A DNA stretch of 64,000 bases from an uncultured Thermoplasmata archaeon (lineage in GTDB: Archaea; Thermoplasmatota; Thermoplasmata; RBG-16-68-12). The position numbers and the translations under genes are program-made. Shown piece after piece: positions 1,302 to 43,319 of the stretch. Numbering within the stretch: position 1 is the stretch's first letter; each line of letters begins with the position of its first letter. The notes under the pieces were generated by a model. It did not search any database. It worked only from the letters and a program-made list of their open reading frames with translations, and was not told the origin of the DNA. The stretch covers positions 32,001 to 96,000 of the forward strand of contig CAVYJM010000021.1 in NCBI GenBank assembly GCA_963768855.1. Direction: 5' to 3'.

Positions 1302-2540
1302 TCAGGTGCCCTCGTGCCACGACTCCAGGTACTTCTTCTGTGCGGCGGAGAGGGAGTCGATGCGGATGCCCATCGTCTCGAGCTTGAGCCGGGCGACCTT
1401 GTCGTCGAGGGCTTCCGGGACCGCATAAACGCGGGGCTCGAGGTCTCCCGCATGCTTCGCGAGGTGGGCGGCGCTCACGGCCTGGATTGCGAAACTCATG
1501 TCCATGATCTCGACGGGGTGGCCCTGGCCTGCGGCGAGGTTCACGAGGCGTCCCTCCGCGAGCACGTAGATCCGCTTGCCTCCCGCGATCGTGTACTCGT
1601 CCACGAACTCCCGCACGCGGCGCTTCGATTTTGCCGCGCGCTCGAGTTCCTTGAGCGCGATCTCGTTGTTGAAGTGGCCCGCGTTCGCGAGAACGACGCC
1701 GTCGCGGAGGGCGGGGAAGTGCTTCGCCGTCACGATGTCCTTGTCGCCGGTCGCGGAGACGATGAAGTCCGCGACCTTGGCGGCTTGGGCCATCGGCAGG
1801 ACCTCGTACCCGTCCATCGCGGCCTCGATGGCCCGGACCGGGTCGATCTCCGTGACGAGGACGCGAGCGCCCATCCCCTTGGCCCGCATCGCGATCCCAC
1901 GGCCGCACCAGCCGTAGCCCGCGACGACGAAAGCCTTGCCTGCGATCAGCAGGTTCGTCGCGTTCATAATCCCGTCAAACGTGCTCTGGCCCGTCCCGTA
2001 GCGGTTGTCGAACAGGTGCTTCATCTTCGCGTCGTTCACGTCGATGACGGGGAACTTGAGCTCGCCGTCCTTCTCCATGGAGCGCAGGCGGATGACGCCC
2101 GTGGTCGTCTCCTCGTTGCCGCCGCGGACCCCATCGAGGAGTTCGCGGCGCTTCGTGTGCAGCAGGAAGATCAGATCCGCGCCGTCGTCGATGACGAGGT
2201 CGGGTTTCAGGTCGAGGACCTTGTGGAGGCTGTCGTAGTACTCCTCCGTGGTCTGCCACTTCTTTGCGTACACGTCGAGGCCGTGCACCTCCTTGAGCGC
2301 GGCTACGACGCTGTCGTCTGTCGACAAAGGATTACAGGAGGCCAGTCGGACGTCGGCCCCGGCCTCCCTGAGCGTGAGCGCGAGCACCCCCGTCTTCGCC
2401 TCCGTGTGGAGCGCCATCCCGATCCGGAGGCCCTTGACGGCCTTGGACCGCTGGAGTTCCGTGCGGATGGCGGCCAGGACGGGCATATGGTCCCGCGCCC
2501 ATTCGAGGCGGCGTGCCCCGCGCTCCGCGAGCTCGGACAT
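1302..2540 (-). CDS. ahcY: Adenosylhomocysteinase (SAH hydrolase)
   Basis: SCNPLST, EETTTG, KHLFDNRYGTGQS, GYGWCGRG, GRLVNL, GHPVEIMDMSFA. Confidence 0.97.
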   Translation of the reverse strand: MSELAERGARRLEWARDHMPVLAAIRTELQRSKAVKGLRIGMALHTEAKTGVLALTLREAGADVRLASCNPLSTDDSVVAALKEVHGLDVYAKKWQTTEEYYDSLHKVLDLKPDLVIDDGADLIFLLHTKRRELLDGVRGGNEETTTGVIRLRSMEKDGELKFPVIDVNDAKMKHLFDNRYGTGQSTFDGIMNATNLLIAGKAFVVAGYGWCGRGIAMRAKGMGARVLVTEIDPVRAIEAAMDGYEVLPMAQAAKVADFIVSATGDKDIVTAKHFPALRDGVVLANAGHFNNEIALKELERAAKSKRRVREFVDEYTIAGGKRIYVLAEGRLVNLAAGQGHPVEIMDMSFAIQAVSAAHLAKHAGDLEPRVYAVPEALDDKVARLKLETMGIRIDSLSAAQKKYLESWHEGT

Positions 2541-2567
2541 CGCCGCGCCGATGCGCCGGATGCGATT

Positions 2568-3053
2568 TCAGCCTTCCGGTGCGGCGCGGTGACTCCGATA
2601 CGAGTCGGCGATGACGAACACGACCCCGAGGCCCAGGGCGCCGTAGAAGGCCGCGTCGATCGGCCAGGCCGCGTGGATGGCCGAGGGTGTGGACACCTGC
2701 CAGAACTCGATGCCGAGCAGGGTCTGCTCGAGCACCGCCGGCATGTACACGACCTCGCCAGCGGTCACGACCGGGCGGGCGTCCCCTTCGACGTACACGG
2801 GCACGGGGTTGTTCGGGTCGCCGCTGTCGATCCAGAGGACCGTCACGGACGGCCCCAGGAATGACGTATAGCTCACGTTGTCGACTTTCTCGTGGATCGT
2901 GACCTGGGCACCGACCGCATACCCCAGGAACCCGTTGCCCTGCTCATCGGCGCGCAGCTGCGGCCCGCTCACGGAGGTGAGGGGCCAGTACGCTACCGCG
3001 AGGAGCAGGCCCACGAGGGCGAGGGCGATACCCACGATCGCGAGTCGTTTCAT
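2568..3053 (-). CDS. Hypothetical membrane protein (N- and C-terminal TM helices, beta-rich external domain)
   Basis: MKRLAIVGIALALVGLLLAVAYW N-terminus and a hydrophobic C-terminal helix. Confidence 0.6.
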   Translation of the reverse strand: MKRLAIVGIALALVGLLLAVAYWPLTSVSGPQLRADEQGNGFLGYAVGAQVTIHEKVDNVSYTSFLGPSVTVLWIDSGDPNNPVPVYVEGDARPVVTAGEVVYMPAVLEQTLLGIEFWQVSTPSAIHAAWPIDAAFYGALGLGVVFVIADSYRSHRAAPEG

Positions 3054-12779: not shown

Positions 12780-13236
12780 GGTCCGGCTCCTGTTCGGCCA
12801 GGACCCGAAGCGCTCGTTCCACATGGGGTTTGGGGTTCATGGACTTGAATGAATCCACGATCGTGCCGTCCGGCCCGATGATGTAGGTCACCCGCTTCGC
12901 CATGCCCATCAGCCCGAGGGCGTTGTACGCGCGGCAGATGTCCTTCTGCGGATCCGCGATCAGGGGGAAGTTCAGGTGGTGTTTCTCGCGGAACTCGCGA
13001 TGCGAGGCGCCGTCCTGGACGCTGACCCCGAGGACCACGGCGCCCAGGGCCTGGAACCGGTCGTGTTCGTCGCGGAAGGCGCACGCTTCCATCGTGCACC
13101 CCATCGTCATGTCCGCGGGATAGAAGTAGAGCACGACGGGGTGACCTGCGTAGTCGGCCAGATGGACGGTCCGCCCGTCCTGATCGACGCCGGTGAAATC
13201 CGGGGCCTTCGTCCCTGATGCGAGGATGTCTGCCAT
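12736..13236 (-). CDS. bcp: Peroxiredoxin, Bcp/PrxQ family
   Basis: APDF, VVLYFYPADMTMGCTMEACAFRD (PxxxTxxC), KRVTYII. Confidence 0.9.
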   Translation of the reverse strand: MADILASGTKAPDFTGVDQDGRTVHLADYAGHPVVLYFYPADMTMGCTMEACAFRDEHDRFQALGAVVLGVSVQDGASHREFREKHHLNFPLIADPQKDICRAYNALGLMGMAKRVTYIIGPDGTIVDSFKSMNPKPHVERALRVLAEQEPDHALQGAAASGSHSA

Positions 13237-13409
13237 GGTCTCCATCCGAACGACAAATCGGTGATTCATCAACCCTTGCCCAGATTCGGATGGCCGAAGC
13301 GCTGTTATCGAATAGACAAGATTACATGCGTGCTCACTCTTTATCACTCTGTTTAGGCAACCATCACATCAAAAAGGTTAATAACCATCCCGCTTCTTTG
13401 CCTCCTCCC

Positions 13410-14402
13410 ATGTCCCCGCCCGGCCCGCTCCCCTCCACGGACGAACTGCGTACCTCGTACCGTCTCGTGCGGGACGTCCGGGCACAGCGGGTCCTGCGGG
13501 TTCAAGCCGCCCTGGGCATCGCGATCCGGGAGTACCTCAACGGTCAGGGGTTCACGGAGCTCCTCCCGCCGATCATCGGTCCCGCGACGGACCCGGGCAT
13601 CCGCGGGGCGAAGCAGGCCACGATTGACTTCTACGGCCGCGAGTACACGGTCATGTCGAGCGCGATTCTCTACAAGCAAATGATGGTTGCCTCGCTCGGC
13701 CGCGTGTACTTCTTCTCGCCGAACGTGCGCCTCGAGCCCCTCGAGACGGCCGCGACGGGCCGGCATCTCGTCGAGTTCGTCCAGGTCGACGTCGAGGAGG
13801 CGGGGGCGACCTACCACGATGCGATGCGTCGCGCGGAAGCTCTCGTTGCGTACGTCCACGACTACGCGAAGACACGGCTGGCGGACGACCTCGCGGGCTT
13901 CCCGAGGACCCTCAACGGGGCGCACGCGCCGTTCCGGCGTCTCTCGTACGACGAGGCTCGGGCGATCCTCGCGGGCCATGGTCGTGAGATTCCTTACGGC
14001 ATCGAGCTTCCCTGGGACCACGAGGAGTTCCTCTCCTCCCAGTTCCGCGAGCCCTTCTTCATCACGGACTACCCACGCGGGTCCCGCGGATTCTACGACC
14101 GCGAGGATCCAGACCACCCCGGGATCCTCCGGGATTTCGACCTGATCTACCCCGAGGGCTATGGCGAGGCGATCTCGGGGGCGGAGCGCGAGCACGAGTA
14201 CGCGAAGGTCATCGCCCGCCTCCGAGAGGCCGGCGAGAACCCGTCGAAGTACGAATGGTACCTCGACATGCTCCGCGAAGGCATCCCGCTCTCCTCGGGC
14301 TTCGGGATCGGCGTCGAACGCCTGACGCGTTACATCTGCGGCCTCAGGGCGGTCTGGGAAGCGAGGCCGTATCCCAAGGTCGCGGGCGTCTTCTCCCCCT
14401 AG
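13410..14402 (+). CDS. asnA: Archaeal asparagine synthetase A (class II aaRS-like catalytic domain without anticodon domain)
   Basis: TDPG, MSSAILYKQ, VRLEP...RHLVEFVQVDVE (motif 2), GEAISGAERE, SGFGIGVERL (motif 3); no N-terminal OB fold. Confidence 0.85.
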   Translation: MSPPGPLPSTDELRTSYRLVRDVRAQRVLRVQAALGIAIREYLNGQGFTELLPPIIGPATDPGIRGAKQATIDFYGREYTVMSSAILYKQMMVASLGRVYFFSPNVRLEPLETAATGRHLVEFVQVDVEEAGATYHDAMRRAEALVAYVHDYAKTRLADDLAGFPRTLNGAHAPFRRLSYDEARAILAGHGREIPYGIELPWDHEEFLSSQFREPFFITDYPRGSRGFYDREDPDHPGILRDFDLIYPEGYGEAISGAEREHEYAKVIARLREAGENPSKYEWYLDMLREGIPLSSGFGIGVERLTRYICGLRAVWEARPYPKVAGVFSP

Positions 14403-15307: not shown

Positions 15308-16888
15308 TCAGCGGCTCCCGCGTCGCCGGTCCCGGAGAACCATCCGGGCCGCATTGCGCCCGGGCGCCCCGGTGATCCCGCCGCCCGGGTGGGCGCCTGA
15401 TCCGCAGAGATAGAGGCCCGCGATTGGCGTGCGATACTGGCTCCAGCCGGGCGCGGGCCGCAGGACGAGTTGCTGGTTCAACGTCATCTCTCCGTGGTAG
15501 ATGTGGCCGTCGGTGAGGCCGAACCGGTTCTCGAGGTCCAGCGGAGTCAGGACTTCCCGCGCGAGCACGAGCCCACGGAATCCAGGGAGGTGTTCGTCCA
15601 GGAGATCGGTCACCGCGTCGCCCAGTTCCTCGCGACCCGCTTCCCAGTCCCCTTTCTTCCGGTGGTACGGCTCATACTGGACCGCGACTGACATCACATG
15701 CTTGCCCGCAGGGGCGAGATCCGGGTCCATGAGGGAGGGGATCGTGATGTCCAGGAACGGGTCCTCCGAGGGCGCGCCGTATTTCGCGTCGTCGTACGCG
15801 TGCTCGAGGTACTCCAGGGAAGGTGCGATCCGGAGATGCGGCGCGACCACGACGTCGTCGCCGGGAACAGACGGAGCGCCGTCCAGGGCGAAGTTCACCT
15901 TCGCGACGACGCCTTCCGTCTGGAAGTGGCGGATGTAGTCGAGGAAGTCCCGGGGTAGCTCCGCGGGGTCGACGAGCCGGAGGAACGTGCGCTTCGGGTC
16001 GGCGTTCGAGAGGACGATCGGTGCGAGGAGGATCTCTCCGGAGACGAGCTGGACGCCGCTCGCACGCCCGTCCTTCGTGAGGACCTGCAGGACCTCCGCG
16101 TCGGTCCGGATGACGGCTCCGGATTCCTGGGCGGCGGACGCCAGGAGCCGGGTGAGGTTCCCCATCCCGCCGCGGACGAACCCCCAGCCTGTGCCGTGCA
16201 CCGCGGGGGCGTAGTGGTGGAGGAGACCGAACGCGGTCTCCGGGGAATACGGGCCGCGGAACGTCCCGGCCAGCGCGTCGACCGCGAGGCTGGCCTTGAG
16301 CCGCTCGCCCTCGAACCACTCGTTGAGCACGGCCCGCAGGCTCATGGGCACCATGCGGATCGCCTGGTTCATCACGTCGACCCCGGATCGGCGCAGCTTG
16401 AGCCCGCGGCGGAGGAGCGTCAGCTGGTCCACCCATCTCCAATCCGCCACCTCTGGGGGAGGCGCCACGAGGAGCGGGTCGATGATGCTCGCGAGGGTCG
16501 TGAGGAGGGAGTGGAACGCGGGGAAGGCGGCGGCGTCGTGCTGCGAGGACGCGGCGATCTCCTGCGCCGAGCGCGCGGGGTCCCGCCAGATCCTCAGTGG
16601 CTTCCTTTCCATGCCGAGGACGACGACCTCTGGGTCGATTGGGAGGATCTGCAGACCGCGCTGGGCCAGTCCGAGCTCCTGGACGATTTCAGGTCGCAGG
16701 TTTCCGCAGAGGCTCGCCCCCGGGAGGCCTCGGAACCCCGGATAGAACTCCTCCGTGGTCGCCGCCCCGCCGACGATGGGCCGGCGTTCCAGGACGAGGA
16801 CGCGGTGCCCTGCACGAGCCAGGTACGCAGCGGCGACCAGCCCGTTGTGCCCGGCCCCGATGACGATCACATCGTACCCGGAGGGCAC
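15308..16888 (-). CDS. FAD-dependent oxidoreductase, PYROXD2/phytoene-desaturase-like (paralog 1)
   Basis: DVIVIGAGHNGLVAAAYL, GGAATTEE, GGMG, SNADPKRTF, GHIYHGE, YLCGSGAHPGGG. Confidence 0.9.
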   Translation of the reverse strand: MPSGYDVIVIGAGHNGLVAAAYLARAGHRVLVLERRPIVGGAATTEEFYPGFRGLPGASLCGNLRPEIVQELGLAQRGLQILPIDPEVVVLGMERKPLRIWRDPARSAQEIAASSQHDAAAFPAFHSLLTTLASIIDPLLVAPPPEVADWRWVDQLTLLRRGLKLRRSGVDVMNQAIRMVPMSLRAVLNEWFEGERLKASLAVDALAGTFRGPYSPETAFGLLHHYAPAVHGTGWGFVRGGMGNLTRLLASAAQESGAVIRTDAEVLQVLTKDGRASGVQLVSGEILLAPIVLSNADPKRTFLRLVDPAELPRDFLDYIRHFQTEGVVAKVNFALDGAPSVPGDDVVVAPHLRIAPSLEYLEHAYDDAKYGAPSEDPFLDITIPSLMDPDLAPAGKHVMSVAVQYEPYHRKKGDWEAGREELGDAVTDLLDEHLPGFRGLVLAREVLTPLDLENRFGLTDGHIYHGEMTLNQQLVLRPAPGWSQYRTPIAGLYLCGSGAHPGGGITGAPGRNAARMVLRDRRRGSR

Positions 16889-16890
16889 GG

Positions 16891-18483
16891 TCACCTCCTC
16901 CACACGGACCAGTCGTTGAGCATCTCCCGCGCGGCGTTGTAGCCCGGGGCGCCCATCACGCCGCCCCCGGGGTGGGCTCCGGAGCCGCAGAGGTACAGCC
17001 CCCGGACCGGGGTGCGGTACTGGGCCCAGCCGGCCACGGGCCGGAGGAAGAACAGCTGATTCGGCGTGAGCTCCCCGTGAAAGATGTTGCCCTCGGTGAG
17101 CCCGATTGTGCGCTCGAGGTCCAGCGGCGTGAGCACCTGCCGTCCCACAATCGCCTTCGGGAGGTTCGGGGCGAACTGGGCGAGCGTCTCGACGACCGTG
17201 TCGCCGAGTTCCTCCCGCTTGTCGTCCCACGTACCGTTCTTCAGATGGTAGGGGGCGTACTGGACGAAGATGGACATGATGTGGTTACCCGGCGGTGCCA
17301 TGCCCGGGTCGATCGCGGAGGGCACCATGACGTCCATGTAGGGGTGCTGGGAGAAGTTCCCGTACTTCGCGTCGTCGTACGCCCGCTCGATGTACTCGAC
17401 GCTCGGGCTGATTGAGACGGCCCCGTGGAGGTGCGCCCCTTCCCCCGGCAGGCACGTGAAATTCGGCGGCTCCTTGAGCGCGAGGTTCACCTTCGCACTG
17501 GACCCTTCGATGTTGTACGCCTCGATGCCGCGGACGAAATCCCCCGGGAGGAGGTTGCGGTCGAGCATCTGGAGGAACGTGCGCTTGGGGTCGACGCCCG
17601 ATGCGATGATGTGCGAGGCGATCCGTTCGCCGCTCGCCAGTTCGACGCCGGTCACCCGGCCATCGGCGACGAGGATCTGGCGCACCTCGGCGTTCACGCG
17701 GATGTCCGCGCCGAATCCGCGTGCCGCGGAGGCGATCGACTCGCTGACCATGCCCATGCCGCCCTTCACGAAGCCCCAGGCGCGGAACGCGCCGTCGACT
17801 TCTCCCATGTAGTGGTGGATCAGGACGTACGCGGTCCCGGGAGACCGCGGCCCCAGAAAGGTCCCGATGATCCCGCTCGCGCACATCGTCCCCTTGAGCG
17901 CGTCCGTCTCGAACCATTCATCCAGGTAGTCCGCGCTCGACATCGTCATGAGCCGCGCGAAGGTGTACAGGGTCTCCTGGTCCGCGCTCCGGAACTGGCC
18001 GCGGAGCTCGAGCATCCTCCGCAGGTTCGCGGGGTTCATCGAGCCGAGGTCGGGCGGCGTCATGCCGATCTGCGGCTTGACAAATTTCGCGATCTTGACC
18101 ATGAGCTGCCCGAACTTCGGGTACGCCTCCGCGTCACGCTTCGAGAATTTGGAGATCTCCTTGCGGTTCTCCTCCGGATCCGCTCCGCGGAACAGGTAGC
18201 GGCCGTCCTCGAGCGGCGTGAGCGTGGATTCGACCGGGATGATCTGGTAGCCATGGGCTGGAAGGTTCAGGTCCCGGATGATCTCCGGCCGGAGGAGGCT
18301 GCAGACGTAGGAGCAGACCGTGAACTTGAACCCGGGGACGATCTCCTCCGTGACGGCGGCGCCCCCGACCAAGTGGCGGCGCTCGAGCACGAGGACCTTC
18401 TTCCCCGCGCGTCCCAGGTACGCCGCGGTGACGAGTCCGTTGTGGCCTCCGCCGATGACGATCGCATCGTACGCCTGGGCCAT
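16891..18483 (-). CDS. FAD-dependent oxidoreductase, PYROXD2/phytoene-desaturase-like (paralog 2)
   Basis: DAIVIGGGHNGLV, GGAAVTEE, VKGGMG, GNIFHGE, YRTPV.GLYLCGSGAHPGGG. Confidence 0.9.
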   Translation of the reverse strand: MAQAYDAIVIGGGHNGLVTAAYLGRAGKKVLVLERRHLVGGAAVTEEIVPGFKFTVCSYVCSLLRPEIIRDLNLPAHGYQIIPVESTLTPLEDGRYLFRGADPEENRKEISKFSKRDAEAYPKFGQLMVKIAKFVKPQIGMTPPDLGSMNPANLRRMLELRGQFRSADQETLYTFARLMTMSSADYLDEWFETDALKGTMCASGIIGTFLGPRSPGTAYVLIHHYMGEVDGAFRAWGFVKGGMGMVSESIASAARGFGADIRVNAEVRQILVADGRVTGVELASGERIASHIIASGVDPKRTFLQMLDRNLLPGDFVRGIEAYNIEGSSAKVNLALKEPPNFTCLPGEGAHLHGAVSISPSVEYIERAYDDAKYGNFSQHPYMDVMVPSAIDPGMAPPGNHIMSIFVQYAPYHLKNGTWDDKREELGDTVVETLAQFAPNLPKAIVGRQVLTPLDLERTIGLTEGNIFHGELTPNQLFFLRPVAGWAQYRTPVRGLYLCGSGAHPGGGVMGAPGYNAAREMLNDWSVWRR

Positions 18484-18635
18484 CCTCGCTCCGCCTCCCG
18501 CCGCCGCGACCTCGAGCGATTCGGAATGAACGAGTTCCATTTAACAATTCGTCTCAAGGGGCTCCGAATTTCGCCGCTCCTAAAGCTTTAACCGAACTCG
18601 AGGCTTGCCCATCCGGCGTCGTCGGGAGGAGAGGC

Positions 18636-19823
18636 ATGCCGCGCGGGACCCCGTTCCACTCGAGGACCTCCGCCCTGTGCGAGAGCTACAGCTGGCGGAA
18701 CTGGTCTGGATACGTGTGCGCGAGCTCGTACCAGCTCGTCCCGGAGATGGAGTACCATGCGATCCGGGGGGCCACGGGACTCCTCGACGTCTCGCCGCTT
18801 TTCAAGTACCACGTCCGCGGGACGGATGCGTTCCGGCTCTTGAACAAGGTCGTGACGCGGGATCTGGCGAAGTGCCGTCCCCATCAGGTCATGTACACGC
18901 CGTGGTGCGACGACCGGGGCAAGACGATCGACGACGGGACGGTGTGGAACCTCGGGGATGGCACGTGGCGCCTGACGTCGGCCGAGTCGAACCTCGGGTG
19001 GCTCGAGGAGAACGCGTTCGGGATGAAGGTGGAGATCTCGGACGTGTCGGAGGATATCGCCACGGCGGCCCTCCAGGGACCGACCTCGAAGGCCATCCTG
19101 GAAGACGCCTGCGACGGTGCGGTCGAGGGTCTCCGGTACTACCGCTTCACCGAGACCAAGCTCGATGGCATCCCCGTGACCGTGTCCCGCACCGGGTACA
19201 CCGGGGATCTCGGCTACGAGATCTGGACGGAGCGGGAGAACGCCGAGCGGCTGTGGGATGCCCTGATGGCGCACGGGAAGGGGCATGGGATCACGCCCGC
19301 AGGGCTCCTCGCGCTCGACATGGCGCGCATCGAGGCGGGGCTCATCCTCGCCGAGGTGGACTACATGCCCGCGCGGAAGGCGGTGATCGACTCGCAGGCC
19401 TATTCCCCGATGGAGCTCGGCTTGGACTGGACGGTCGATTGGAGGAAGGAGTCGTTCACGGGCCGAGCCGCGCTCCGGGCCGAGCAGGCTCGCGGGGTGC
19501 CGAGGCGGATCGTCGGCCTGGAGCTCGACTGGAGTGTTGCGGAGGCGTTCTACCAGAAACTCGGGTTGCCTCCCGAGCCACCGCGCGTCGCGTGGCGATC
19601 GAAGATCCCGGTGTACGGGAGCCTCCGCCAGATCGGCCACGCCACGAGCGGCGTGTGGTCCCCTCTCCTGAAGCGGTATCTGGCCCTGGCCACCGTCGAC
19701 GCCGCGTACGCCTCGCCGGGAACGGTCGTCGACATGGAGGTCACGATCGAGGACGAGCGCAAGCGCGTTCCCGCCGCGGTCGTGCCGCGCCCCTTCTTCG
19801 ACCCACCGCGCAAGAAGGCATGA
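18636..19823 (+). CDS. Aminomethyltransferase (GcvT-like folate-binding) family protein
   Basis: GLLDVSPL, YTPWCDDRGKTIDDG, ALQGP, SRTGYTGDLGYEI, GL.ALDMARIEAG, PFFDP. Confidence 0.9.
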   Translation: MPRGTPFHSRTSALCESYSWRNWSGYVCASSYQLVPEMEYHAIRGATGLLDVSPLFKYHVRGTDAFRLLNKVVTRDLAKCRPHQVMYTPWCDDRGKTIDDGTVWNLGDGTWRLTSAESNLGWLEENAFGMKVEISDVSEDIATAALQGPTSKAILEDACDGAVEGLRYYRFTETKLDGIPVTVSRTGYTGDLGYEIWTERENAERLWDALMAHGKGHGITPAGLLALDMARIEAGLILAEVDYMPARKAVIDSQAYSPMELGLDWTVDWRKESFTGRAALRAEQARGVPRRIVGLELDWSVAEAFYQKLGLPPEPPRVAWRSKIPVYGSLRQIGHATSGVWSPLLKRYLALATVDAAYASPGTVVDMEVTIEDERKRVPAAVVPRPFFDPPRKKA

Positions 19824-19907
19824 TGGGTCTCGATCTCGGCAATGCATCCCCGTGAGCAGGTCGAGAGCAACGGATTTATCGGATGGACGGTTCTCGGAGC
19901 CGGGAGC

Positions 19908-21470
19908 ATGGTCTCGTACGATGCGATCGTGGTCGGGGCAGGTCACAACGGCCTGGTCGCGGGAGCCTATCTCGCGAAGGCCGGTCTGAGGACGCTCATC
20001 CTCGAGCGTCGCGGAATCGTCGGCGGCGCCTGCGTCACGGAGGAGGTCCTGCCCGGTTTCCGCGTCTCGAGCCTGTCCTACACCTGCGGCCTCTTCCGCC
20101 CGGAGATCAAGGAGGAGCTGCAGCTCGCGAAGTTCGGGCTCGAGGAGCACTCGCACGATCCCGGCCTGTTCCTCCCGTTCCCGGACCGCCGGTACATCAT
20201 GTGGCGTCCCGACCCCGCGTGGAACCTCCGCGAAGTCGCGAAGTTCTCCGAGGCGGACGCGACGGCGCTCCCGAGGTACGAAGCGTTCTGGGAGCAGTTC
20301 GGGGAGCTCGTCGAGCCGACGATGCTCGCACCCCCGGTCAGCCTCGCGGACCTCGCCCAGCTCGTCACGACGCCGGAGGCGGAGGACTTCATCCGCAAGA
20401 CCCTCCTCATGTCCGTTCAGGACGTCCTGGACGACTTCTTCGAGTCCGACGAGGTCAAGGTCTCCCTGGGCACGAGCGCGGTCTCCGGCACGCTCGCAGG
20501 CCCGCGCACCCCTGGCACAGCGTTCGTCCTCGGCCACCACAGCATCGGGACGATCAACGGCGAGAAAGGCGTCTGGGGGTGGGCGAAGGGAGGGATGGGC
20601 GGCATCACCCAGGCGACTGCAAGCGCGGCCCGCCATTTCGGCGCGGAGATCCGAACCCGGGCGGGTGTGGCCCGCGTGCGGATCGAAGACGGGAGGTCCA
20701 CGGGCGTGGAACTCGAGGACGGCACGACGATCGAGTCGAAGGTCGTTCTGAGCAACCTCGATCCGAAGCGCACGTTCCTCGGGATCGTCGGGAAGGAACA
20801 CCTTCCCGCGGACTTCGTGCACGCGATCGACCGTTACCGCATGGAGCCTTCCTCGTTCAAGCTCAACCTCGCGCTCAAGGACCTGCCCGACTTCTCCGCG
20901 ATCCCCGGGACGAACCTACAGCTCCATCACAAGGGGATCATCGACATCGCCCCGGACCTCGACTACCTGGAGCGAGCCTACGAGGACGCGATCCACGGCC
21001 GCTGGTCCAGGGAGCCCTACATCGAGTTCGTCCTCCAGTCGACGGTCGACCCGACCGTGGCACCGAAGGGGATGCACACCCTGACGGCGTCGTGCAAGTT
21101 CGCGCCGTACGAACTCGAGGACGGGAGCTGGGACACGGAGGGCGAGAAGTTCGCGGAGGCGATCCTCGACTCCATCGAGGCCTACGCCCCGAACGTCCGC
21201 AAGATTATCCTGGGCCGGAACTGGATTACGCCGCTGGACATGGAGCGGGAGTACGGGCTGACCCGGGGCGACGTCTTTCACGGCGCGATCTTCCCGTACC
21301 AGATGTTCTCCTTCCGGCCTGTGCCGGGGTGGGCGCGTTACCGCACTCCGGTCGAGAGGCTCTACCTCTGCGGCGCGGGGGCCCATCCCGGTGGAGGTGT
21401 GCTCGGGGCGCCGGGCCACAACGCCGCCATGGCGGTCCTCGAGGACTGGCCGAAGTTCTCGTCGCCCTGA
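19908..21470 (+). CDS. FAD-dependent oxidoreductase, PYROXD2/phytoene-desaturase-like (paralog 3)
   Basis: DAIVVGAGHNGL, GGACVTEE, KGGMGGI, GDVFHG, YLCGAGAHPGGG. Confidence 0.9.
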   Translation: MVSYDAIVVGAGHNGLVAGAYLAKAGLRTLILERRGIVGGACVTEEVLPGFRVSSLSYTCGLFRPEIKEELQLAKFGLEEHSHDPGLFLPFPDRRYIMWRPDPAWNLREVAKFSEADATALPRYEAFWEQFGELVEPTMLAPPVSLADLAQLVTTPEAEDFIRKTLLMSVQDVLDDFFESDEVKVSLGTSAVSGTLAGPRTPGTAFVLGHHSIGTINGEKGVWGWAKGGMGGITQATASAARHFGAEIRTRAGVARVRIEDGRSTGVELEDGTTIESKVVLSNLDPKRTFLGIVGKEHLPADFVHAIDRYRMEPSSFKLNLALKDLPDFSAIPGTNLQLHHKGIIDIAPDLDYLERAYEDAIHGRWSREPYIEFVLQSTVDPTVAPKGMHTLTASCKFAPYELEDGSWDTEGEKFAEAILDSIEAYAPNVRKIILGRNWITPLDMEREYGLTRGDVFHGAIFPYQMFSFRPVPGWARYRTPVERLYLCGAGAHPGGGVLGAPGHNAAMAVLEDWPKFSSP

Positions 21471-21474
21471 CGAA

Positions 21475-22365
21475 TCAGCGGTCGCGGACCTGCGCGTCGT
21501 ACGCATTCGCGAAACCAGCGTCCCCAGCCTCGAGGAAGTTCTTGAGGCAGACGAGGAGGTCCGACCAGCCGCCGCGGTGGTACAGGATTTCCGCCTGCTC
21601 TGCCGCACCGTATCCTGCGCTCGTCACGTAGATCGCGGTCCCGCTCGACTTGGGTTCAAGGGTGAATGTGACGTGGAGGTCGCCCTGCTCCCGGGGCCAC
21701 CGCAGCACGAGGCGGTGCGGGGGCTCGAACTCCAGGATTCGGTCCGGACCGTGGTCCCAGCCCATCGAGAACGCTCCGCCCGCACGGGAATCGACTCGGG
21801 CCTTGCCGAGGGGAACGCCCCCGGTCGACCAATGGTCCACCTGCGGGGCGTCCGTGAGGGCCGCGAACAGGTTCTCCTGAGGCACCTCAATGAGGTTGGA
21901 GAGGCGTAGCTCGCGCGAGGCGACGGGCGCATGGTCCGGACGGACGCTGTCGCTCCGGCCCTCCCCGATGGACTTGAGGTTTCCGAGGCACATCCTCCAT
22001 GCGTCTTGGATCGTGCCGCACGTGCTGTCCTTCAACGGGACGCCCAGATGCCGGACCGTGAGCAGCGTGGCCTCCCCGCCCTGATCCTCAAGATCGTACG
22101 ACACGCGGGTGGCGTTCCCACGGATCGGCCACGTGAAGGCGAAACGCTTCAGGGTCTCCCCCTCGTCGATCGTGGTCTCCCAGCCGCGGCCCTCGGGCAG
22201 GACGAGGCACGTCTCCCCGCCGAACTGGAACTTGCCGCCCACCTTGGGTTCGATGCGGCACCAGCCGCAGAACCAGCGGGCCAGATGCTCGATGCGGAGC
22301 AGCTTCTCGAAGACGGTGGCCCGCGGGGCGTGGACCCGCAGGAGGAATTCGTAATCAGTCGTCAT
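21475..22365 (-). CDS. Tandem SRPBCC/AHSA1 (START-like) domain protein
   Basis: Two repeats of VF..L...E.L..W...GG.F...W...WRMCLGNLK / WSDLLVCLKNFLE. Confidence 0.8.
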   Translation of the reverse strand: MTTDYEFLLRVHAPRATVFEKLLRIEHLARWFCGWCRIEPKVGGKFQFGGETCLVLPEGRGWETTIDEGETLKRFAFTWPIRGNATRVSYDLEDQGGEATLLTVRHLGVPLKDSTCGTIQDAWRMCLGNLKSIGEGRSDSVRPDHAPVASRELRLSNLIEVPQENLFAALTDAPQVDHWSTGGVPLGKARVDSRAGGAFSMGWDHGPDRILEFEPPHRLVLRWPREQGDLHVTFTLEPKSSGTAIYVTSAGYGAAEQAEILYHRGGWSDLLVCLKNFLEAGDAGFANAYDAQVRDR

Positions 22366-22501
22366 CCCGACGCCCCGGCGCAAGGACTCGCGCCGTTTCA
22401 ACTTGCCTCCTGTATTTACCGCCCGACCCGAACCTATTTGCCCGTTCCCCGCGTCCCACACATGCTGCTTCGGATCGGCGTGTGCGCAGGAGCGGAAGAC
22501 G

Positions 22502-23668
22502 ATGGGATACCGGTACGCGGTCATCGGCTCGGGCCGCCAGGGGACGGCCGCGGCCTACGACTTCGCGAAGTTCGGCGATGCGGACGACATCGTGATGGGC
22601 GACATGGTCCTCGGGCAGGCGAGGCGCGCGGCCGCGCGGGTGAACAAGCTCGCCGGACGCTCCGTGGCCCGCTCCGCCCAGGCCGACGTCACGAAGCCCG
22701 CGACGATCCTGAAGGTGATCAAAGAGGCGGACGTCCTGCTGAGCGGCGTCCCGTACTTCTTCAACCTGGGCCTCGCGAAACTCGCCTTGAAGGCGAGGGT
22801 CTCCATGGTCGACTTCGGCGGCAACACGGACCTCGTGCGGAAGCAGCTCGCCCTCGACGCGAGCGCGCGCAAGGCGGGGGTCGGGTTCGTCCCCGATTGC
22901 GGCATGGGTCCGGGGCTGAACATCACGATGGGCGTCTACGCGATGGAGCTCCTCGACGTTCCGGAACACATCTACATCTACGACGGGGGTCTGCCGCAGC
23001 ATCCCCGGCCACCCTGGAACTACGAGCTCACGTTCAACGTGGAGGGCCTGACGAACGAGTATTTCGGCGACGCCACGTTCATCCGGGACGGGCGGGTCGC
23101 CCGGGTCCCGCTCTTCTCCGAGTTCGAGCTCGTGGACTTCCCGCCCCTCGGGACGCTCGAGGCGGTCGTCACGCCGGGAGGCCTGTCCACCGCCCCGTGG
23201 TCCTTCCAGGGCAAGTTGAAGACGTTCCAAAACAAGACCCTCCGATATCCGGGCCACTGGTCCCAGATGCAGGCATTCCAGGACCTCGGCCTCTTCGAGC
23301 TCGACCCGATCGAGGTCGACGGCCGCAAGGTCATCCCGCGCCACGTCTTCCACGCGCTGTTCGAACCCAAGGTCACCCCCGAGGAGATCCGGGACGTCTG
23401 CGTCGAGCGCGTGCGTGCCCTCGGCATGAAGGATCAGCACACCGCGGAGGCGGTCGTCGAACTCGTCGACTACTACGACGAGGCCACGGGCTTCACGTCG
23501 ATGGAGCGGCTCACCGGCTGGCATGCGGCGATCACGGCGGAGATGATCGCCCGCGGCGTCATCCCGCCCGGGGCGCACTCCGTCGAGCTCGGGATCCCCG
23601 CGAAGGCGTTCGTCCAGGAGGCGCGGAAGCGCGGCCTGAAAATCACGGAGCGCGTGAACGCGGTGTGA
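22502..23668 (+). CDS. Saccharopine dehydrogenase / lysine 6-dehydrogenase-like oxidoreductase
   Basis: YAVIGSGRQG, MVDFGG, PDCGMGPGL, YDGGLP, FNVEGLTNEY, KTLRYPGH, SMERLTG. Confidence 0.88.
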   Translation: MGYRYAVIGSGRQGTAAAYDFAKFGDADDIVMGDMVLGQARRAAARVNKLAGRSVARSAQADVTKPATILKVIKEADVLLSGVPYFFNLGLAKLALKARVSMVDFGGNTDLVRKQLALDASARKAGVGFVPDCGMGPGLNITMGVYAMELLDVPEHIYIYDGGLPQHPRPPWNYELTFNVEGLTNEYFGDATFIRDGRVARVPLFSEFELVDFPPLGTLEAVVTPGGLSTAPWSFQGKLKTFQNKTLRYPGHWSQMQAFQDLGLFELDPIEVDGRKVIPRHVFHALFEPKVTPEEIRDVCVERVRALGMKDQHTAEAVVELVDYYDEATGFTSMERLTGWHAAITAEMIARGVIPPGAHSVELGIPAKAFVQEARKRGLKITERVNAV

Positions 23669-23725: not shown

Positions 23726-24148
23726 ATGAAGGCCACGAAGGGTCGCAAGGTGGCGGTGCACTACCGCGGCACCCTCGAAGACGGCGAGGAGTTCGACTCC
23801 AGCGAAGGCCGCGAGCCCCTCGAATTCGTCGTGGGGGACGGCGACCTCATCCCCGGGTTCGAGAAGGCGGTCATCGGGATGGAGCCCGGCCAGAGCAAGA
23901 CGGTCACCCTGGACGTGGAGGACGCGTACGGTCCCTACGAGGACCAGCTCGTGGTCGAGGGGCCGCGGAATTCATTCCCCGACGGGGAGCTCAAGGTGGG
24001 CCAGAGCTACACGGTCCATCTTCACGATGGGCAGGAGGCCGTCGGCCGCGTGCTGCGCATCGGGAAGGACGCGGTGGCCCTCGACTTCAACCACCCGCTC
24101 GCGGGGAAGCGGCTCACGTTCCACGTGCGCGTCGTTTCCGTGGCGTAG
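23726..24148 (+). CDS. FKBP-type peptidyl-prolyl isomerase (SlyD-like)
   Basis: HYRGTLEDGEEFDSS, LIPGFE, AYG, DFNHPLAGKRLTF. Confidence 0.93.
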   Translation: MKATKGRKVAVHYRGTLEDGEEFDSSEGREPLEFVVGDGDLIPGFEKAVIGMEPGQSKTVTLDVEDAYGPYEDQLVVEGPRNSFPDGELKVGQSYTVHLHDGQEAVGRVLRIGKDAVALDFNHPLAGKRLTFHVRVVSVA

Positions 24149-25343
24149 CCCGCTTCTTCCGCCCGGGCGCCTTCGTGTACAGGTCCGACCGGCCCGTCAT
24201 CCGTTCCATGTATGCCTTGTCCAGGTCGTACACGAGCGGTTCCTGATTGCTGAACCGTCCTCGGGCCCAGGCGCGGGACCGGACGCCGAGCTGGGTGCGT
24301 TCGCACACGGCCCAGTCCTGGCGGTTGATCTCGTCCCACATGTCGACGGCATCGCTCGGGTCGAAGTCGGGCCTCGCCATGGTCTCCGGTTCGAAGTACC
24401 ACTCGCACTCGATCCGCGAGTGGGTCGGGCTCAGGGGCCAGTCGCGGTGAATCATCAGGTAGTCCGGGTGGACGCTGAAGAACATGTTCGGGAAGACGAC
24501 CCAGTAGTAGATCCGCTTCCGGTCGTCGTCGGTCATCCCCTTCAGAGGCGGCCGTTTCGTGTAGCCGGACACGGTCATCGAGGTGTAGTCGCCCGCGAAG
24601 GTCTGGAAGCCGCCGTTGATGTAGCCCGGCGTCGTCCCCCGCGCCATCCAGGCGTCGTTGTCCCCGGTGAAGTACGGCGTCACGCGGTTCAGCCCGGGGT
24701 GGATTGGGGCGCAGTGGTAGCACTCCGAGTAGTTCTCCGCGAGGATCTTCCAGTTCGCGTTCACCTCGTACACGTGCTTCGCGCCGAGGCGCAGGTCTGC
24801 GATGTCCCAGCGCTCCGTGCGCGTCAGGAGCGGACCGATCTGGTCCTTGAGGGGTTGCGCCTCCGGGTCCATGTTGGCCCAGATGAAACTGCCCCAGGTC
24901 TCCGTCTTGACGGGATAGAGCCCGAAGTCCTCCTTGTCGAAGTCCTCGAGCCCGTCCGTATGGGGAGCGCCGACGAGCTTGCCTTCCGTCGAGTACGTCC
25001 ACGCGTGGTACGGGCAGACGATCGAGCGGAGCTTCTCGCCGCGTTCCTCCGTGACGATGCGCGTGCCGCGATGGCGGCAGACGTTGTAGAATCCGCGGAC
25101 GCGGCTGTCGTTGCCCCGCACGAAAAGCAGGCTCTCCGTCCCGATGTCCCGCGTGAAGAAGTCGCCGGGGTTCGGGATCTGGGTGACGTGCCCGACGTTG
25201 AGCCAATTACGGAAGAAGAGCTTCTCCAACTCCTGCTGGAACACCCCCTCGTCGAAGTAGACAGCGCCGGGAGGGGTCCTCGCGGAGAGATGTTCATCTC
25301 CGGGTCTGGCGCGCGGGTTGTCACTGAACCGAACTCGCTCCAT
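24114..25343 (-). CDS. Rieske non-heme iron oxygenase alpha subunit (GbcA/CntA/choline monooxygenase-like)
   Basis: NVCRHRG...CPYHAWTY (Rieske), NWKILAENYSECYHC..IHP (mononuclear Fe), FPN, EINRQDW.VCE..Q.G. Confidence 0.92.
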   Translation of the reverse strand: MERVRFSDNPRARPGDEHLSARTPPGAVYFDEGVFQQELEKLFFRNWLNVGHVTQIPNPGDFFTRDIGTESLLFVRGNDSRVRGFYNVCRHRGTRIVTEERGEKLRSIVCPYHAWTYSTEGKLVGAPHTDGLEDFDKEDFGLYPVKTETWGSFIWANMDPEAQPLKDQIGPLLTRTERWDIADLRLGAKHVYEVNANWKILAENYSECYHCAPIHPGLNRVTPYFTGDNDAWMARGTTPGYINGGFQTFAGDYTSMTVSGYTKRPPLKGMTDDDRKRIYYWVVFPNMFFSVHPDYLMIHRDWPLSPTHSRIECEWYFEPETMARPDFDPSDAVDMWDEINRQDWAVCERTQLGVRSRAWARGRFSNQEPLVYDLDKAYMERMTGRSDLYTKAPGRKKRATPRKRRARGT

Positions 25344-41875: not shown

Positions 41876-43222
41876 TCAGATCGCCGAGAGGCCGCGTGCC
41901 TTCAACGCCTCGCGGATCTCGCCCGCCGCGCGAACTCCGGAATCGAGCGCGCCATGCACCGTGGCGTATTCGCCCGCGAAGTGGGCAGACTCCCCGGCGA
42001 AGAAGAGCACGCCCTCGATGGGTTCCGCCAGGATGCGACGTTGCTCGATCCCGCCGCCGACCTTCGGGAACGTGTAGCCGCCGCGGACGTCTGGGTCGGC
42101 GGACCAGTCGATGTACCTCGCGGCGATCAGGTGCGAGCGGAGCTCCGCTCCCGGGACCATGGACTCGAGTTCGCGGACGATGGCGTCGACGACTTCTGAC
42201 TCGGGCCGGCCCGAGAGCGCGATCGCGCGCCGGCCCGACAGGAATCCCTCGAGGACCACGGGCAGGTCCTTCCTCCCGTGATACGGGAAGAAGAACCAGG
42301 ATCCCTCCGTGGATGCGGCCGAGGTGGCCCGCCCGAGGACCGTGCGCCGGACCCCGGCGTCGAAAACGAGGAGGATCTTGTCCGCATGACCGAATCCGAG
42401 GGCATTCACCGCGCCCAACTTCCGCTCCGGCAGTTCCGGGACGAAGTCGATGGCCTTGGCCTGGAGGACTCCGAGGGAGACCGTGACGACCACCGCGGCC
42501 CCTTCGAACGTCTCCGGGCCCGCGGGTCCCGTGGCCTGCACCCGGACGCCTTCCTTCGTCCACTCGATCCGATGGACCCGCGTCTTCAGGCGGATCGCAT
42601 CGGCGAAATCCTTCGCGCGCCGTTTCGCGAGCTTCGCATAGCCTTCGAGGACCTGATAGTTGGCCCACGGGAGGCCGAAGGATTGCGCGTTGGCCTCTTC
42701 GGCGAGGCCCCGGACGCTGACCTCGTCCGGATCCGCCGCGTTGATGCTCGCGTACATCGCCCCGACGAACTTGCGGGCGGTAGGCAGGGCGTGCTCGGCC
42801 TCCAGGAAGCGGTCCAGGGTGATGTCCGGGCCGGCGTAACGCGCGACCGCCTTCGGGAGCCGGCGGAGGGTCTGGAAGGAGGACCGGAGCGGCTCGAGCC
42901 CACTCAGCGCGACGCCGAGGGAGCTGCGGAGCTTCCCCTTCAGGAAGAACCGCGCCCCGCGGAACTCGGGCACTTTCTTCGTCGTGAGGCCGAACTCCTC
43001 GATCCAGCGGAGCACGGAGGCGTCGCTGCCGTGCACCATCATCGCGCCGCCCTCGATCGGGTGGCCGTCGAGGAGATCGTACTCCGTCCGCACCCGGCCG
43101 CCGACGCGGTCCTTCGACTCGAGGATGACGAATGGGATGCCGGCCTGCTTCAGAGTATGGGCGCATCCGAGCCCGGCGAATCCGGCGCCGACGATGATGA
43201 CCTTCGGCTTCTCGGCGGACGT
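41876..43222 (-). CDS. Flavin monoamine oxidase family protein (probable ACG start, or frameshifted 5' end)
   Basis: In frame upstream of the ORF-track GTG (43093): KVIIVGAGFAGL...ILESKDRVGGRV. Also VTVSLGVL, DW..DP..RGGY, FFAGE, TVHGAL.SG.RAA. Confidence 0.88.
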   Translation of the reverse strand, partial: TSAEKPKVIIVGAGFAGLGCAHTLKQAGIPFVILESKDRVGGRVRTEYDLLDGHPIEGGAMMVHGSDASVLRWIEEFGLTTKKVPEFRGARFFLKGKLRSSLGVALSGLEPLRSSFQTLRRLPKAVARYAGPDITLDRFLEAEHALPTARKFVGAMYASINAADPDEVSVRGLAEEANAQSFGLPWANYQVLEGYAKLAKRRAKDFADAIRLKTRVHRIEWTKEGVRVQATGPAGPETFEGAAVVVTVSLGVLQAKAIDFVPELPERKLGAVNALGFGHADKILLVFDAGVRRTVLGRATSAASTEGSWFFFPYHGRKDLPVVLEGFLSGRRAIALSGRPESEVVDAIVRELESMVPGAELRSHLIAARYIDWSADPDVRGGYTFPKVGGGIEQRRILAEPIEGVLFFAGESAHFAGEYATVHGALDSGVRAAGEIREALKARGLSAI

Positions 43223-43319
43223 GTTCTCCCTGCCGAGGCGGGAACGCGGATGGATGTATTACCTCTCCTGTCCGGGAGTCCCTCATCCCCCCTCACTGAA
43301 ACGCGTGAGGTTTAAGTAG

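Follow-up and report, generated by a model that had tools for sequence, protein, structure and literature searches.

To our knowledge, the only enzymes described so far that couple N-demethylation to folate are the DAO-family flavoenzymes (DMGDH, SARDH, DMGO, and Sox), Tdm, and Dmm. In DMGDH, SARDH, and DMGO (PDB codes: 1pj5 and 4p9s), the flavin oxidises an N-methyl group and a GcvT-fold module captures the C1 unit on THF, with the DAO-family FAD domain fused at the N-terminal side. Heterotetrameric sarcosine oxidase, SoxABDG (or N-methylglutamate dehydrogenase), couples N-demethylation to folate with several subunits, the GcvT-like module (in SoxA) and the catalytic flavoprotein (SoxB) being on different chains. 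DmmD is encoded together with an N-demethylating redox enzyme, the dimethylamine monooxygenase DmmDABC. It is annotated as a stand-alone 'aminomethyltransferase family protein' (bioRxiv 10.64898/2026.06.26.734754). Tdm (PDB code: 9q5a) is composed of a DUF1989 Zn domain and a C-terminal domain, which binds THF and turns channelled formaldehyde into methylene-THF (PMC13619132). For human PYROXD2, a flavoprotein whose reaction is unknown, GWAS have repeatedly linked variants with N6,N6-dimethyllysine, N2-acetyl-N6,N6-dimethyllysine, and trimethylamine (PMC7878905, PMC13352909).

Judging from sequence and gene context, a locus of an uncultured wetland archaeon (Thermoplasmata MAG; genome 93.6% complete) probably encodes a split, THF-coupled enzyme for the oxidative demethylation of N-methyl amines, both tertiary and secondary. 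In the window, a stretch of 64,000 nucleotides, three paralogous FAD flavoproteins of about 530 aa (FP1, FP2, and FP3; pairwise identity 40-48%) flank a 395-aa GcvT-family gene (Table 1). This arrangement had been proposed in the initial annotation and agrees with the Pfam domains found in all four reading frames. FP2 and the GcvT-like gene are divergent, as described there, and are separated by a spacer of 95 bp; phytoene synthase, GcvH, and GcvP are indeed missing from the window. The FP1 reading frame extends to 17230; however, the start is most likely GTG at 16894, since this codon overlaps the FP2 stop (as GTGA) and is preceded by a Shine-Dalgarno-like run, GGAGGAGG. FP2 probably starts at M20 (18483), since residues 1-20 have a pLDDT below 50 and are disordered in the AF2 model (pLDDT 81.7), and the orthologues begin at M20. 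FP3 probably starts at M23 (19908).

Table 1. Features of the flavoprotein/GcvT-like locus, numbered from the first letter of the window. The three flavoprotein frames match Pfam Amino_oxidase/NAD_binding_8.
Feature	Position	Strand	Basis
FP1, B-type PYROXD2/CrtO-like FAD flavoprotein, 528 aa	15308..16894	-	Pfam Amino_oxidase; clade B in tree
FP2, A-type flavoprotein, most conserved subunit, ORF 549 aa	16891..18540	-	Pfam, NCBIfam; clade A
Divergent intergenic region	18541..18635	.	alignment of 7 archaeal loci
GcvT-like stand-alone folate-binding protein, 395 aa, Tdm C-terminal-domain type	18636..19823	+	Pfam, NCBIfam, PDB match
FP3, C-type flavoprotein, directly downstream of GcvT-like gene	19842..21470	+	Pfam, NCBIfam; clade C
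Double SRPBCC/AHSA1 protein	21475-22524	-	Pfam
Saccharopine-dehydrogenase-fold protein	22403-23668	+	Pfam
Rieske oxygenase alpha subunit, betaine (GbcA-like) type	24114..25343	-	Pfam Rieske + Ring_hydroxyl_A

The proposed logic is the same as that of DMGDH, SARDH, and DMGO, and the entire GcvT-like protein can be aligned with their folate domains. However, the flavoproteins belong to the Amino_oxidase/CrtI-PYROXD2 branch, they are present as two (here three) paralogous chains, and the folate module is encoded on its own. SoxA also matches the GcvT-like protein (NCBIfam and PDB); in contrast to the mutually paralogous flavoproteins of this locus, SoxB is of the DAO family, and equivalents of SoxD and SoxG are absent here. 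DmmD and the GcvT-like protein are both stand-alone, but their redox partners differ (DmmABC versus flavoproteins). The closest sequence relative of the GcvT-like protein is the THF domain of Tdm; here, a DUF1989 catalytic domain is absent, an FAD flavoprotein pair is the partner, and an N-oxide substrate is not expected.

The GcvT-like protein matches Pfam GCV_T and GCV_T_C (E 7.6e-60) and has both domains and the conserved core of the GcvT-fold folate-binding superfamily. Its best NCBIfam match is positions 386-760 of Tdm (285 bits; cut-off 1100 bits), leaving out the N-terminal DUF1989 domain, and its best PDB match is residues 407-783 of Tdm (9q5a, 184 bits). The match takes in the N-terminal 36 residues, which are missing from alignments with canonical GcvT. 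The IDDG and SRTGYTGDLGYE motifs (D100; R185-G193) do not vary among 25 orthologues, and their counterparts in Tdm and Bacillus subtilis GcvT align with them.

In the tree, FP2 and FP1 belong to two distinct and old clades, A and B (SH-aLRT 88 and 93), which always occur as a pair, and FP2 is 51-64% identical to its bacterial orthologues. Clade C (SH-aLRT 100), to which FP3 belongs, contains archaeal sequences only, including two further copies from this genome, one beside MttB/corrinoid genes and the other beside a homocysteine S-methyltransferase; in total, the genome encodes seven flavoproteins of this type. The FAD motifs GGGHNGL (the N-terminal GxGxxG) and HPGGG (C-terminal) are conserved within a CrtI-like fold, features that are common to the whole superfamily. 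FP1 retains both motifs, but B-type pockets vary in the segments that show no variation in clade A; therefore, the B-type chain may be non-catalytic. At least 21 of 30 ESM Atlas neighbours of FP2 (0.99) fall in cluster sets automatically named PYROXD2, and both PYROXD2 (PMC12010460) and the FP proteins are most similar to CrtO-type proteins. The link to PYROXD2 thus consists of automatic cluster names and a common likeness to CrtO, the tree containing neither eukaryotic PYROXD2 nor cyanobacterial CrtO; moreover, unlike the genes studied here, PYROXD2 is encoded singly, and no GcvT partner is known for it.

The conserved unit is a trio of the GcvT-like gene, the A-type gene (FP2), and the B-type gene (FP1). 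Adjacent trios are present in Thermoplasmatota, Gemmatimonadota, Chloroflexota, Fidelibacterota, Myxococcota, Acidobacteriota, and cultured Alphaproteobacteria, that is, in seven phyla and two domains. Among 27 loci from other genomes, which were retrieved with the GcvT-like protein alone (at least 46% identity), a full-length A-type flavoprotein is adjacent in 26, and the B-type is absent only at contig ends or, in one locus, reduced to a fragment; this arrangement is far beyond chance. Thus the association with the GcvT-like gene that the initial annotation expected holds elsewhere, but the conserved unit includes two flavoproteins rather than three, with clade C being seen only in archaeal loci. 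Start and stop codons of the three genes overlap in several bacteria (ATGA-type), as those of FP2 and FP1 do here (GTGA), and such strict translational coupling suggests a single enzyme. The trio was found in 24 of 24 species of the genus, whereas searches of 16 genomes from the order's other families and of 300 genomes sampled from the phylum gave none, which points to an acquired and retained catabolic trait. An independent second association is seen for the more distant clade D: in Shinella sumterensis, a different GcvT-family gene directly follows the single flavoprotein. Distant relatives in Agrobacterium, Rhodococcus, Halocatena, Sphingobium, and Paracoccus aminophilus have no GcvT neighbour. 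Three apparent flavoprotein-GcvT fusions (P0127, P0129, and P0130) were rejected as frameshifted neighbouring genes with Arg-rich out-of-frame linkers or scrambled motifs; therefore, they lend no Rosetta-stone support, and adjacency alone is confirmed. No description of the trio was found in the literature on PYROXD2, GcvT/flavoprotein N-demethylases, and butyrobetaine/Rieske systems.

The gene context fits N-methyl-amine catabolism. The Rieske alpha subunit has GbcA as its best NCBIfam match (213 bits, below the cut-off of 670), and the trios of Anaerolineales, Rhizobium, Fuscovulum, and Parasedimentitalea likewise have homologues next to them. Elsewhere, the trio also neighbours DMGDH-like DAO-GcvT fusions, class-III aminotransferases, aldehyde dehydrogenases, Lrp/TetR/IclR regulators, and polyamine or amino-acid ABC transporters and permeases. 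Next to a second trio in this genome (GcvT-like 57%, FP2-like 64%, and FP1-like 56% identical) are two non-Pyl MttB genes and a corrinoid protein gene, together with MetF/MetV and a class-III aminotransferase; the genome also encodes FolD, Fhs, and MTHFR. The SRPBCC/AHSA1 and saccharopine-dehydrogenase-fold genes are kept beside FP3 in four archaeal loci (L001, L003, L004, and L011). NCBIfam gave neither of them a specific assignment; since this includes the saccharopine-dehydrogenase-fold protein, a link of the locus to lysine is speculative. A tRNA-synt_2 gene at 13218-14402 was considered as a lysine-related EpmA and was rejected, the NCBIfam match being archaeal asparagine synthetase A.

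A possible scheme for the demethylase can be described as follows. The A-type FP2 and the B-type FP1 would act together, probably as a heteromer, and would oxidise an N-methyl group of a tertiary, and then of a secondary, N-methyl amine to the iminium. The C1 unit, either as iminium or as released formaldehyde, would pass to the GcvT-like protein and form 5,10-methylene-THF, from which FolD and formate-THF ligase could produce formate with a gain of ATP. FP3 may be an additional paralogue of this lineage that serves a different substrate or methylation state. Upstream, the GbcA-like Rieske oxygenase of the window probably removes the first methyl group of a quaternary amine to give the tertiary amine, a step that the non-Pyl MttB/corrinoid methyltransferases may perform at the second locus; downstream, the primary amine could be handled by an aminotransferase and an aldehyde dehydrogenase. 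Candidate substrates are omega-N-methyl amines, for instance 4-(di)methylaminobutyrate from gamma-butyrobetaine, and N6-methyl-lysines or dimethylglycine/sarcosine. This N-demethylase reading is favoured by the conservation of the trio, the A/B pairing, the codon overlaps, the second trio, and the amine and C1 neighbours, as well as by the association of clade D with GcvT, the Tdm-type relative, the presence of FolD, Fhs, and MTHFR, and the genus-wide retention. It is weakened by a fold closest to CrtD and CrtI, the distant relatives without GcvT, the artefactual fusions, and the variable B-type pocket.

Could the genes instead belong to the better-known families that they resemble? The flavoproteins might be carotenoid or isoprenoid desaturases, ketolases, or isomerases (CrtI/CrtD/CrtO/CRTISO) with an unrelated GcvT-like neighbour. 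With CrtI, CrtD, and CrtO they have the fold and the FAD motifs in common, CrtO and crtI_fam are their best NCBIfam matches, and CrtD (4rep) and CrtI (4dgk) are the top Foldseek matches of the predicted fold, followed by the flavin amine oxidases NicA2, putrescine oxidase, and MAO, so that the fold does not separate C-N from C-C oxidation. However, every score is under the curated cut-offs (CrtO 291-318 bits versus 1000; crtI_fam 115-130 versus 238.1; CrtD at most 98 versus 550-580), and the identity to Pantoea CrtI, which sits on a long outgroup branch of the tree, is 24.5%, so the grouping with true CrtI/CrtD that would have contradicted the initial annotation is not seen. Phytoene/squalene synthase (PF00494) gave no match in the whole genome in spite of its seven flavoproteins (a control search was positive in 8 of 14 genomes), the surrounding genes are those of amine and C1 metabolism, the GcvT neighbour is kept across the seven phyla, and bird PYROXD2, a CrtO-like relative, showed no carotenoid activity (PMC12010460). 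From the scores, the CrtI identity, and the genome without phytoene synthase, the flavoproteins are not carotenoid enzymes, and a carotenoid role is very improbable. Still less credible is an ordinary glycine-cleavage T protein beside unrelated oxidoreductases: in spite of the Pfam match and the public annotation of some relatives as 'glycine cleavage system T protein', both GcvT equivalog cut-offs are missed (TIGR00528, 168.7 bits versus 235.85; NF001567, 230.1 versus 300), and the GcvT-like orthologues always travel with flavoproteins. GcvH (contigs C10 and C17), GcvP (C11 and C12), and two more GcvT-family genes, the strongest at 273 bits, are all on contigs other than that of the locus. 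By its sequence, the GcvT-like protein is not a glycine-cleavage T protein.

The two other alternatives keep more of the proposed biochemistry. The GcvT-like protein may be a non-oxidative methyltransferase of the DmdA/LigM style, moving an onium or ether methyl group to give 5-methyl-THF, while the flavoproteins act on the same carbon skeleton by a separate redox reaction, e.g. C-C desaturation or deamination of an amine to an imine. There are stand-alone demethylases in the GcvT family, the models of DmdA, LigM, and DesA match weakly, and DmdA-like paralogues (382 bits, cut-off 410) adjoin the trio in four loci; some loci also have acyl-CoA synthetase, acyl-CoA dehydrogenase, and CaiB-type genes nearby, and the closeness of the fold to C-C desaturases and the MTHFR (MetF/MetV) of the second locus are also in line with it. 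However, the Tdm capture domain scores far above DmdA (123 bits) and LigM (50 bits), the MTHFR is already accounted for by the adjoining MttB/corrinoid system, and the three-gene coupling speaks for one enzyme; overall, this explanation appears unlikely. It is less likely again that the chemistry is as proposed but that the system simply takes the place of the non-orthologous dimethylglycine and sarcosine dehydrogenases in the breakdown of glycine betaine. Such a role would suit a genome that has GbcA-like Rieske, MttB (MtgB-like), and BHMT-like genes and that lacks a DAO-GcvT fusion of about 800 aa. In contrast, class-III (omega) aminotransferases and aldehyde dehydrogenases recur beside the trio, and glycine needs neither; DMGDH-like genes adjoin the trio in four Chloroflexota loci rather than being replaced by it, and the alphaproteobacterial loci have transporters of the polyamine type, not of the betaine type.

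We know of no member of this flavoprotein branch with a demonstrated amine substrate. A broader and more tentative proposal is that the PYROXD2/CrtO-like branch may in general consist of N-methyl-amine oxidases with a GcvT-fold folate partner, the prokaryotic trio being a so far undescribed heteromer that demethylates, with channelling, tertiary and secondary omega-N-methyl amines (e.g. N6-methyl-lysines and methylaminobutyrates derived from gamma-butyrobetaine). If the demethylase reading holds, a second, unrelated flavoprotein lineage, split into two or three subunits, would perform folate-coupled N-demethylation, and soils, wetlands, groundwater, and the sea would have a new route of methylated-amine turnover, as would archaea that acquired the trio. 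It would also be the first functional hypothesis for the PYROXD2 family with experimental handles, and biochemistry on the trio as a model might reveal the reaction of human PYROXD2. The demethylase idea is directly testable since cultured carriers exist, namely Rhizobium sp. SL42, Shinella zoogloeoides, Ensifer adhaerens, Fuscovulum ytuae, and Parasedimentitalea marina.

The spacer between FP2 and the GcvT-like gene may contain back-to-back archaeal promoters. On the FP2 side, an A/T-rich box, TTTAACAATTCG (18540-18551), is kept in five of the seven aligned archaeal loci. The core of another A/T-rich box, CCTAAAGCTTTAACC (18579-18593), which includes the palindrome AAAGCTTT, is kept in all seven, and a GGGAGGAG run (18624-18631) lies ahead of the GcvT-like ATG.

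The window stems from a Thermoplasmata archaeon MAG, in agreement with the annotation of the nearest relatives of its proteins. The locus in the window comprises four neighbouring open reading frames, three of which encode the paralogous PYROXD2/CrtO-like FAD flavoproteins FP1, FP2, and FP3 (Pfam Amino_oxidase and NAD_binding_8), and the fourth a stand-alone protein of the GcvT family (GcvT-like). FP1 starts with a GTG codon that overlaps the stop codon of FP2 (GTGA) and is preceded by a GGAGGAGG run; therefore, FP2 and FP1 look translationally coupled. The divergent FP2 and GcvT-like genes are separated by 95 bp with two A/T-rich boxes in a window of 67% G+C, each box lying about 45-60 nt upstream of the likely start codon of its own gene, with an SD-like run ahead of each start. 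Among seven related archaeal loci aligned, the FP2-side box is retained in five and the core of the other box in all seven, and both boxes may serve as promoters. The perfect palindrome AAAGCTTT, which falls within the conserved A/T box, may represent a TATA element or a site for a regulator. The initial annotation described two minus-strand paralogs diverging from a GcvT-like gene and a third paralog on the plus strand; by the gene arrangement found here, this description is correct.

Coordinates of the features in the window and in related loci from other contigs and genomes
Feature	Sequence	Position	Strand	Remark
Asparagine synthetase A, archaeal type	Window	13218-14402	plus	489 bits, cut-off 368
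FP1	Window	15308-16894	minus	Start corrected
FP2	Window	16891-18540	minus	Likely start 18483
Palindrome	Window	18582-18589		AAAGCTTT
GcvT-like	Window	18636-19823	plus	Pfam GCV_T and GCV_T_C
FP3	Window	19842-21470	plus	Likely start 19908
GbcA-like Rieske oxygenase, alpha subunit	Window	24114-25343	minus	
Classical flavin amine oxidase	Window	41876-43258	minus	460 aa; Pfam Amino_oxidase, 204 bits
Region with second trio	Own genome, G000:C6 (L040)	786001-806000		
GcvT-like with in-frame TGA	L001 (G309:C12)	1440-2624		90% identity
Second GcvT-family paralogue	L001	8856-10001		
Second GcvT-family paralogue	L009	4173-5300		
Second GcvT-family paralogue	L014	8648-9748		
Second GcvT-family paralogue	L018	15670-16779		
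Locus with single flavoprotein and gcvT	Shinella sumterensis plasmid NZ_CP132306.1 (L032)	49978-65549		

A search with the GcvT-like protein alone, with one genome per species, gave 28 loci, of which the 27 with at least 46% identity were used for neighbour counts. An FP2-type (A-type) gene adjoins in 26 of these 27, and a second (B-type) flavoprotein is present wherever the contig extends, with the sole exception of one locus (L025) that has only a fragment. The resulting trio occurs in Thermoplasmatota, Gemmatimonadota, Chloroflexota, Fidelibacterota, Myxococcota, and Acidobacteriota, and the bacterial loci have the order GcvT-like, A, and B on one strand, frequently with ATGA-type overlaps. 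In plasmid records searched with FP2, the trio was also found in cultured Alphaproteobacteria (Rhizobium sp. SL42, Shinella, Ensifer, Fuscovulum ytuae, and Parasedimentitalea marina) in the order A-B-GcvT with overlaps of 14, 4 or 1 nt, the GcvT proteins being 37-38% identical to that of the window. The locus tags of these trios are IM739_RS21775-21785 in Rhizobium sp. SL42, QF092_RS19765-19775 in Fuscovulum ytuae, and EBB79_RS23545-23555 in Parasedimentitalea marina; the Shinella carriers include Shinella zoogloeoides. The adjacency of flavoprotein and GcvT-like genes thus recurs; however, of the unit of three flavoproteins and a GcvT-like protein proposed earlier, it is a trio and not the quartet that is conserved.

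The GcvT-like gene is present in all 24 species of the window's genus and was not found in 16 genomes from other families of the order, nor were FP2 relatives found among 300 sampled genomes of the phylum. This distribution fits an acquisition of the trio from bacteria and its maintenance as a catabolic trait. Near-identical DNA turns up in metagenomes of three studies, sampled from wetlands and freshwater sediments. In the closest relative (L001), the invariant GDLGYE motif of the GcvT-like gene reads GDL*YE due to a single in-frame TGA, which a sequencing error, recent pseudogenisation or a polymorphism could explain. The 'fusion' proteins in public clusters (P0127, P0129, P0130, and P0125; flavoprotein + GcvT or GcvT + GcvT) are frameshift read-throughs of neighbouring genes with Arg-rich, out-of-frame linkers, and such artefacts inflate the domain-architecture counts for both families.

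The best model for FP1-3 is CrtO, with 291-318 bits versus a cut-off of 1000, and their crtI_fam scores are 115-130 bits versus 238. In a tree of 73 flavoproteins they stand apart from Pantoea ananatis CrtI (flanked by crtY and crtB), which is 24.5% identical and forms a long outgroup branch, and no phytoene/squalene synthase was found in the own genome, which has seven flavoproteins of this type. On these grounds, FP1-3 were rejected as carotenoid enzymes, and the grouping with true CrtI raised by the initial annotation did not appear. Since the AF2 model of FP2 (pLDDT 81.7) is nearest to CrtD and CrtI and then to flavin amine oxidases, the fold does not decide which bond the modelled enzyme attacks. 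A glycine-cleavage T protein was likewise rejected for the GcvT-like protein, which is below both GcvT cut-offs; GcvH, GcvP, and two further GcvT-family genes are on other contigs. The GcvT-like protein matches best to TMAO demethylase (Tdm), over the C-terminal half of that enzyme (NCBIfam, 285 bits, alignment from residue 1), and in the PDB it scores 184 bits with Tdm (PDB code: 9q5a) versus 164 with B. subtilis GcvT.

The flavoproteins fall into four clades: A (SH-aLRT 88) with FP2, all 'first' bacterial genes, and the alphaproteobacterial 'a' genes; B (SH-aLRT 93) with FP1 and the 'second' genes; C (SH-aLRT 100), archaeal only, with FP3 and two more copies from the own genome; and D with single genes. 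The 'b' genes of the Alphaproteobacteria sit on a long branch without resolution. Among 131 columns at least 95% conserved in clade A, 82 are kept in clade B and 91 in clade C (group majority residue matching clade A at 80% or more), the losses in clade B clustering in segments 77-82, 224-256, 346-354, 425-428, and 485-491; both FAD motifs are intact in every clade. From these patterns, A may supply the catalytic subunit that stays constant, and B a partner that varies and might serve as a second active site or a scaffold.

A second complete trio on contig C6 of the own genome (GcvT-like 57%, FP2-like 64%, and FP1-like 56% identical to the window's) is surrounded by genes for a class-III aminotransferase, MetV/MetF (MTHFR), a MetE-fold (Meth_synt_2) protein, a corrinoid protein, a C-type flavoprotein, a thiolase, a CaiB-type CoA-transferase, and two MttB-family proteins, the latter without in-frame stops and below the trimethylamine equivalog cut-off, i.e. 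of the non-Pyl type. Such a predicted gene set for demethylating quaternary amines is unusual for a Thermoplasmata archaeon. A third C-type copy adjoins a BHMT-like homocysteine S-methyltransferase gene. In the window, FP3 is followed by a GbcA-like Rieske oxygenase, a double SRPBCC protein, a saccharopine-dehydrogenase-fold protein, and GNATs, syntenic across archaeal loci; no reductase/ferredoxin gene lies near the Rieske alpha subunit. Recurrent neighbours of the bacterial trios are aldehyde dehydrogenase (five loci), class-III aminotransferase (four loci, and three alphaproteobacterial loci viewed), DMGDH-like DAO-GcvT fusions (four loci), GbcA-like Rieske oxygenases, classical amine oxidase, ADP-forming acyl-CoA synthetase, acyl-CoA dehydrogenase, Lrp/AsnC, IclR or TetR regulators, PotA-type or polyamine-type ABC systems, and APC permeases. 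Beside the trio, L001, L009, L014, and L018 have a second GcvT-family paralogue, missing from the window, that nearly reaches the cut-off for the DMSP demethylase DmdA (382.6 versus 410 bits).

Stand-alone GcvT-family partners of N-demethylating enzymes have a precedent in DmmD. Quaternary amines are demethylated to tertiary amines by non-Pyl MttB enzymes (PMC8604678, PMC13080624) and are likewise used by GbcA/CntA-group Rieske enzymes (PMC10952381). A probable scheme is that, after such a step, the trio would act on the tertiary and secondary amines and the aminotransferase would then take the primary amine, so that the trio would fill exactly the gap between the two. A and B would oxidise the N-methyl group to an iminium, and the GcvT-like protein would trap the C1 unit on THF, as the fused folate domain does in DMGDH/DMGO and as was shown structurally and biochemically for the C-terminal domain of Tdm (PMC13619132). 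The resulting methylene-THF could be processed by FolD, formate-THF ligase, and MTHFR, all present in the genome. From conservation, gene coupling, and context we infer this chemistry, an A/B heteromer, and its contact with the GcvT-like protein. The split folate-coupled N-demethylase proposed earlier is thus partly supported by the rich methyl-amine/C1 context and refined to a trio instead of a quartet. No publication on the trio system was found in the literature; compared with known folate-coupled N-demethylases, it is best classed, by sequence, as a different flavoprotein lineage with a split and paralogous architecture.

The nearest FP2 clusters in the ESM Atlas are automatically named 'PYROXD2', and both groups are CrtO-like, FP1-3 by best model match and PYROXD2 by its reported ~35% identity to Synechocystis CrtO; cell assays of PYROXD2 gave no carotenoid activity (PMC12010460). 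In humans, variants of PYROXD2 show association with N6,N6-dimethyl-lysine, N2-acetyl-N6,N6-dimethyl-lysine, and trimethylamine; in the literature found, the latest from 2026, no reaction is assigned to PYROXD2 (PMC7878905, PMC13352909). A bearing of the trio on PYROXD2 is plausible, and the link should be taken as a lead, not as a finding.

No GcvT neighbour was seen beside the more distant flavoprotein relatives inspected. In Shinella sumterensis, the gene immediately after a clade D flavoprotein gene is a GcvT gene of another, more canonical kind (32% identical), and this arrangement ties the flavoprotein branch to GcvT-fold proteins a second time, independently of the trio. This pair of a single PYROXD2-like flavoprotein and gcvT lies in a carnitine-like cluster with enoyl-CoA hydratase, ADP-forming acyl-CoA ligase, 3-hydroxyacyl-CoA dehydrogenase, class II aldolase, and a BKACE-family enzyme. 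Elsewhere in the window, a class-II aaRS-like gene with a superficial resemblance to EpmA/LysRS encodes an archaeal-type asparagine synthetase A, and the separate classical flavin amine oxidase, 20 kb downstream, belongs to another branch than FP1-3.
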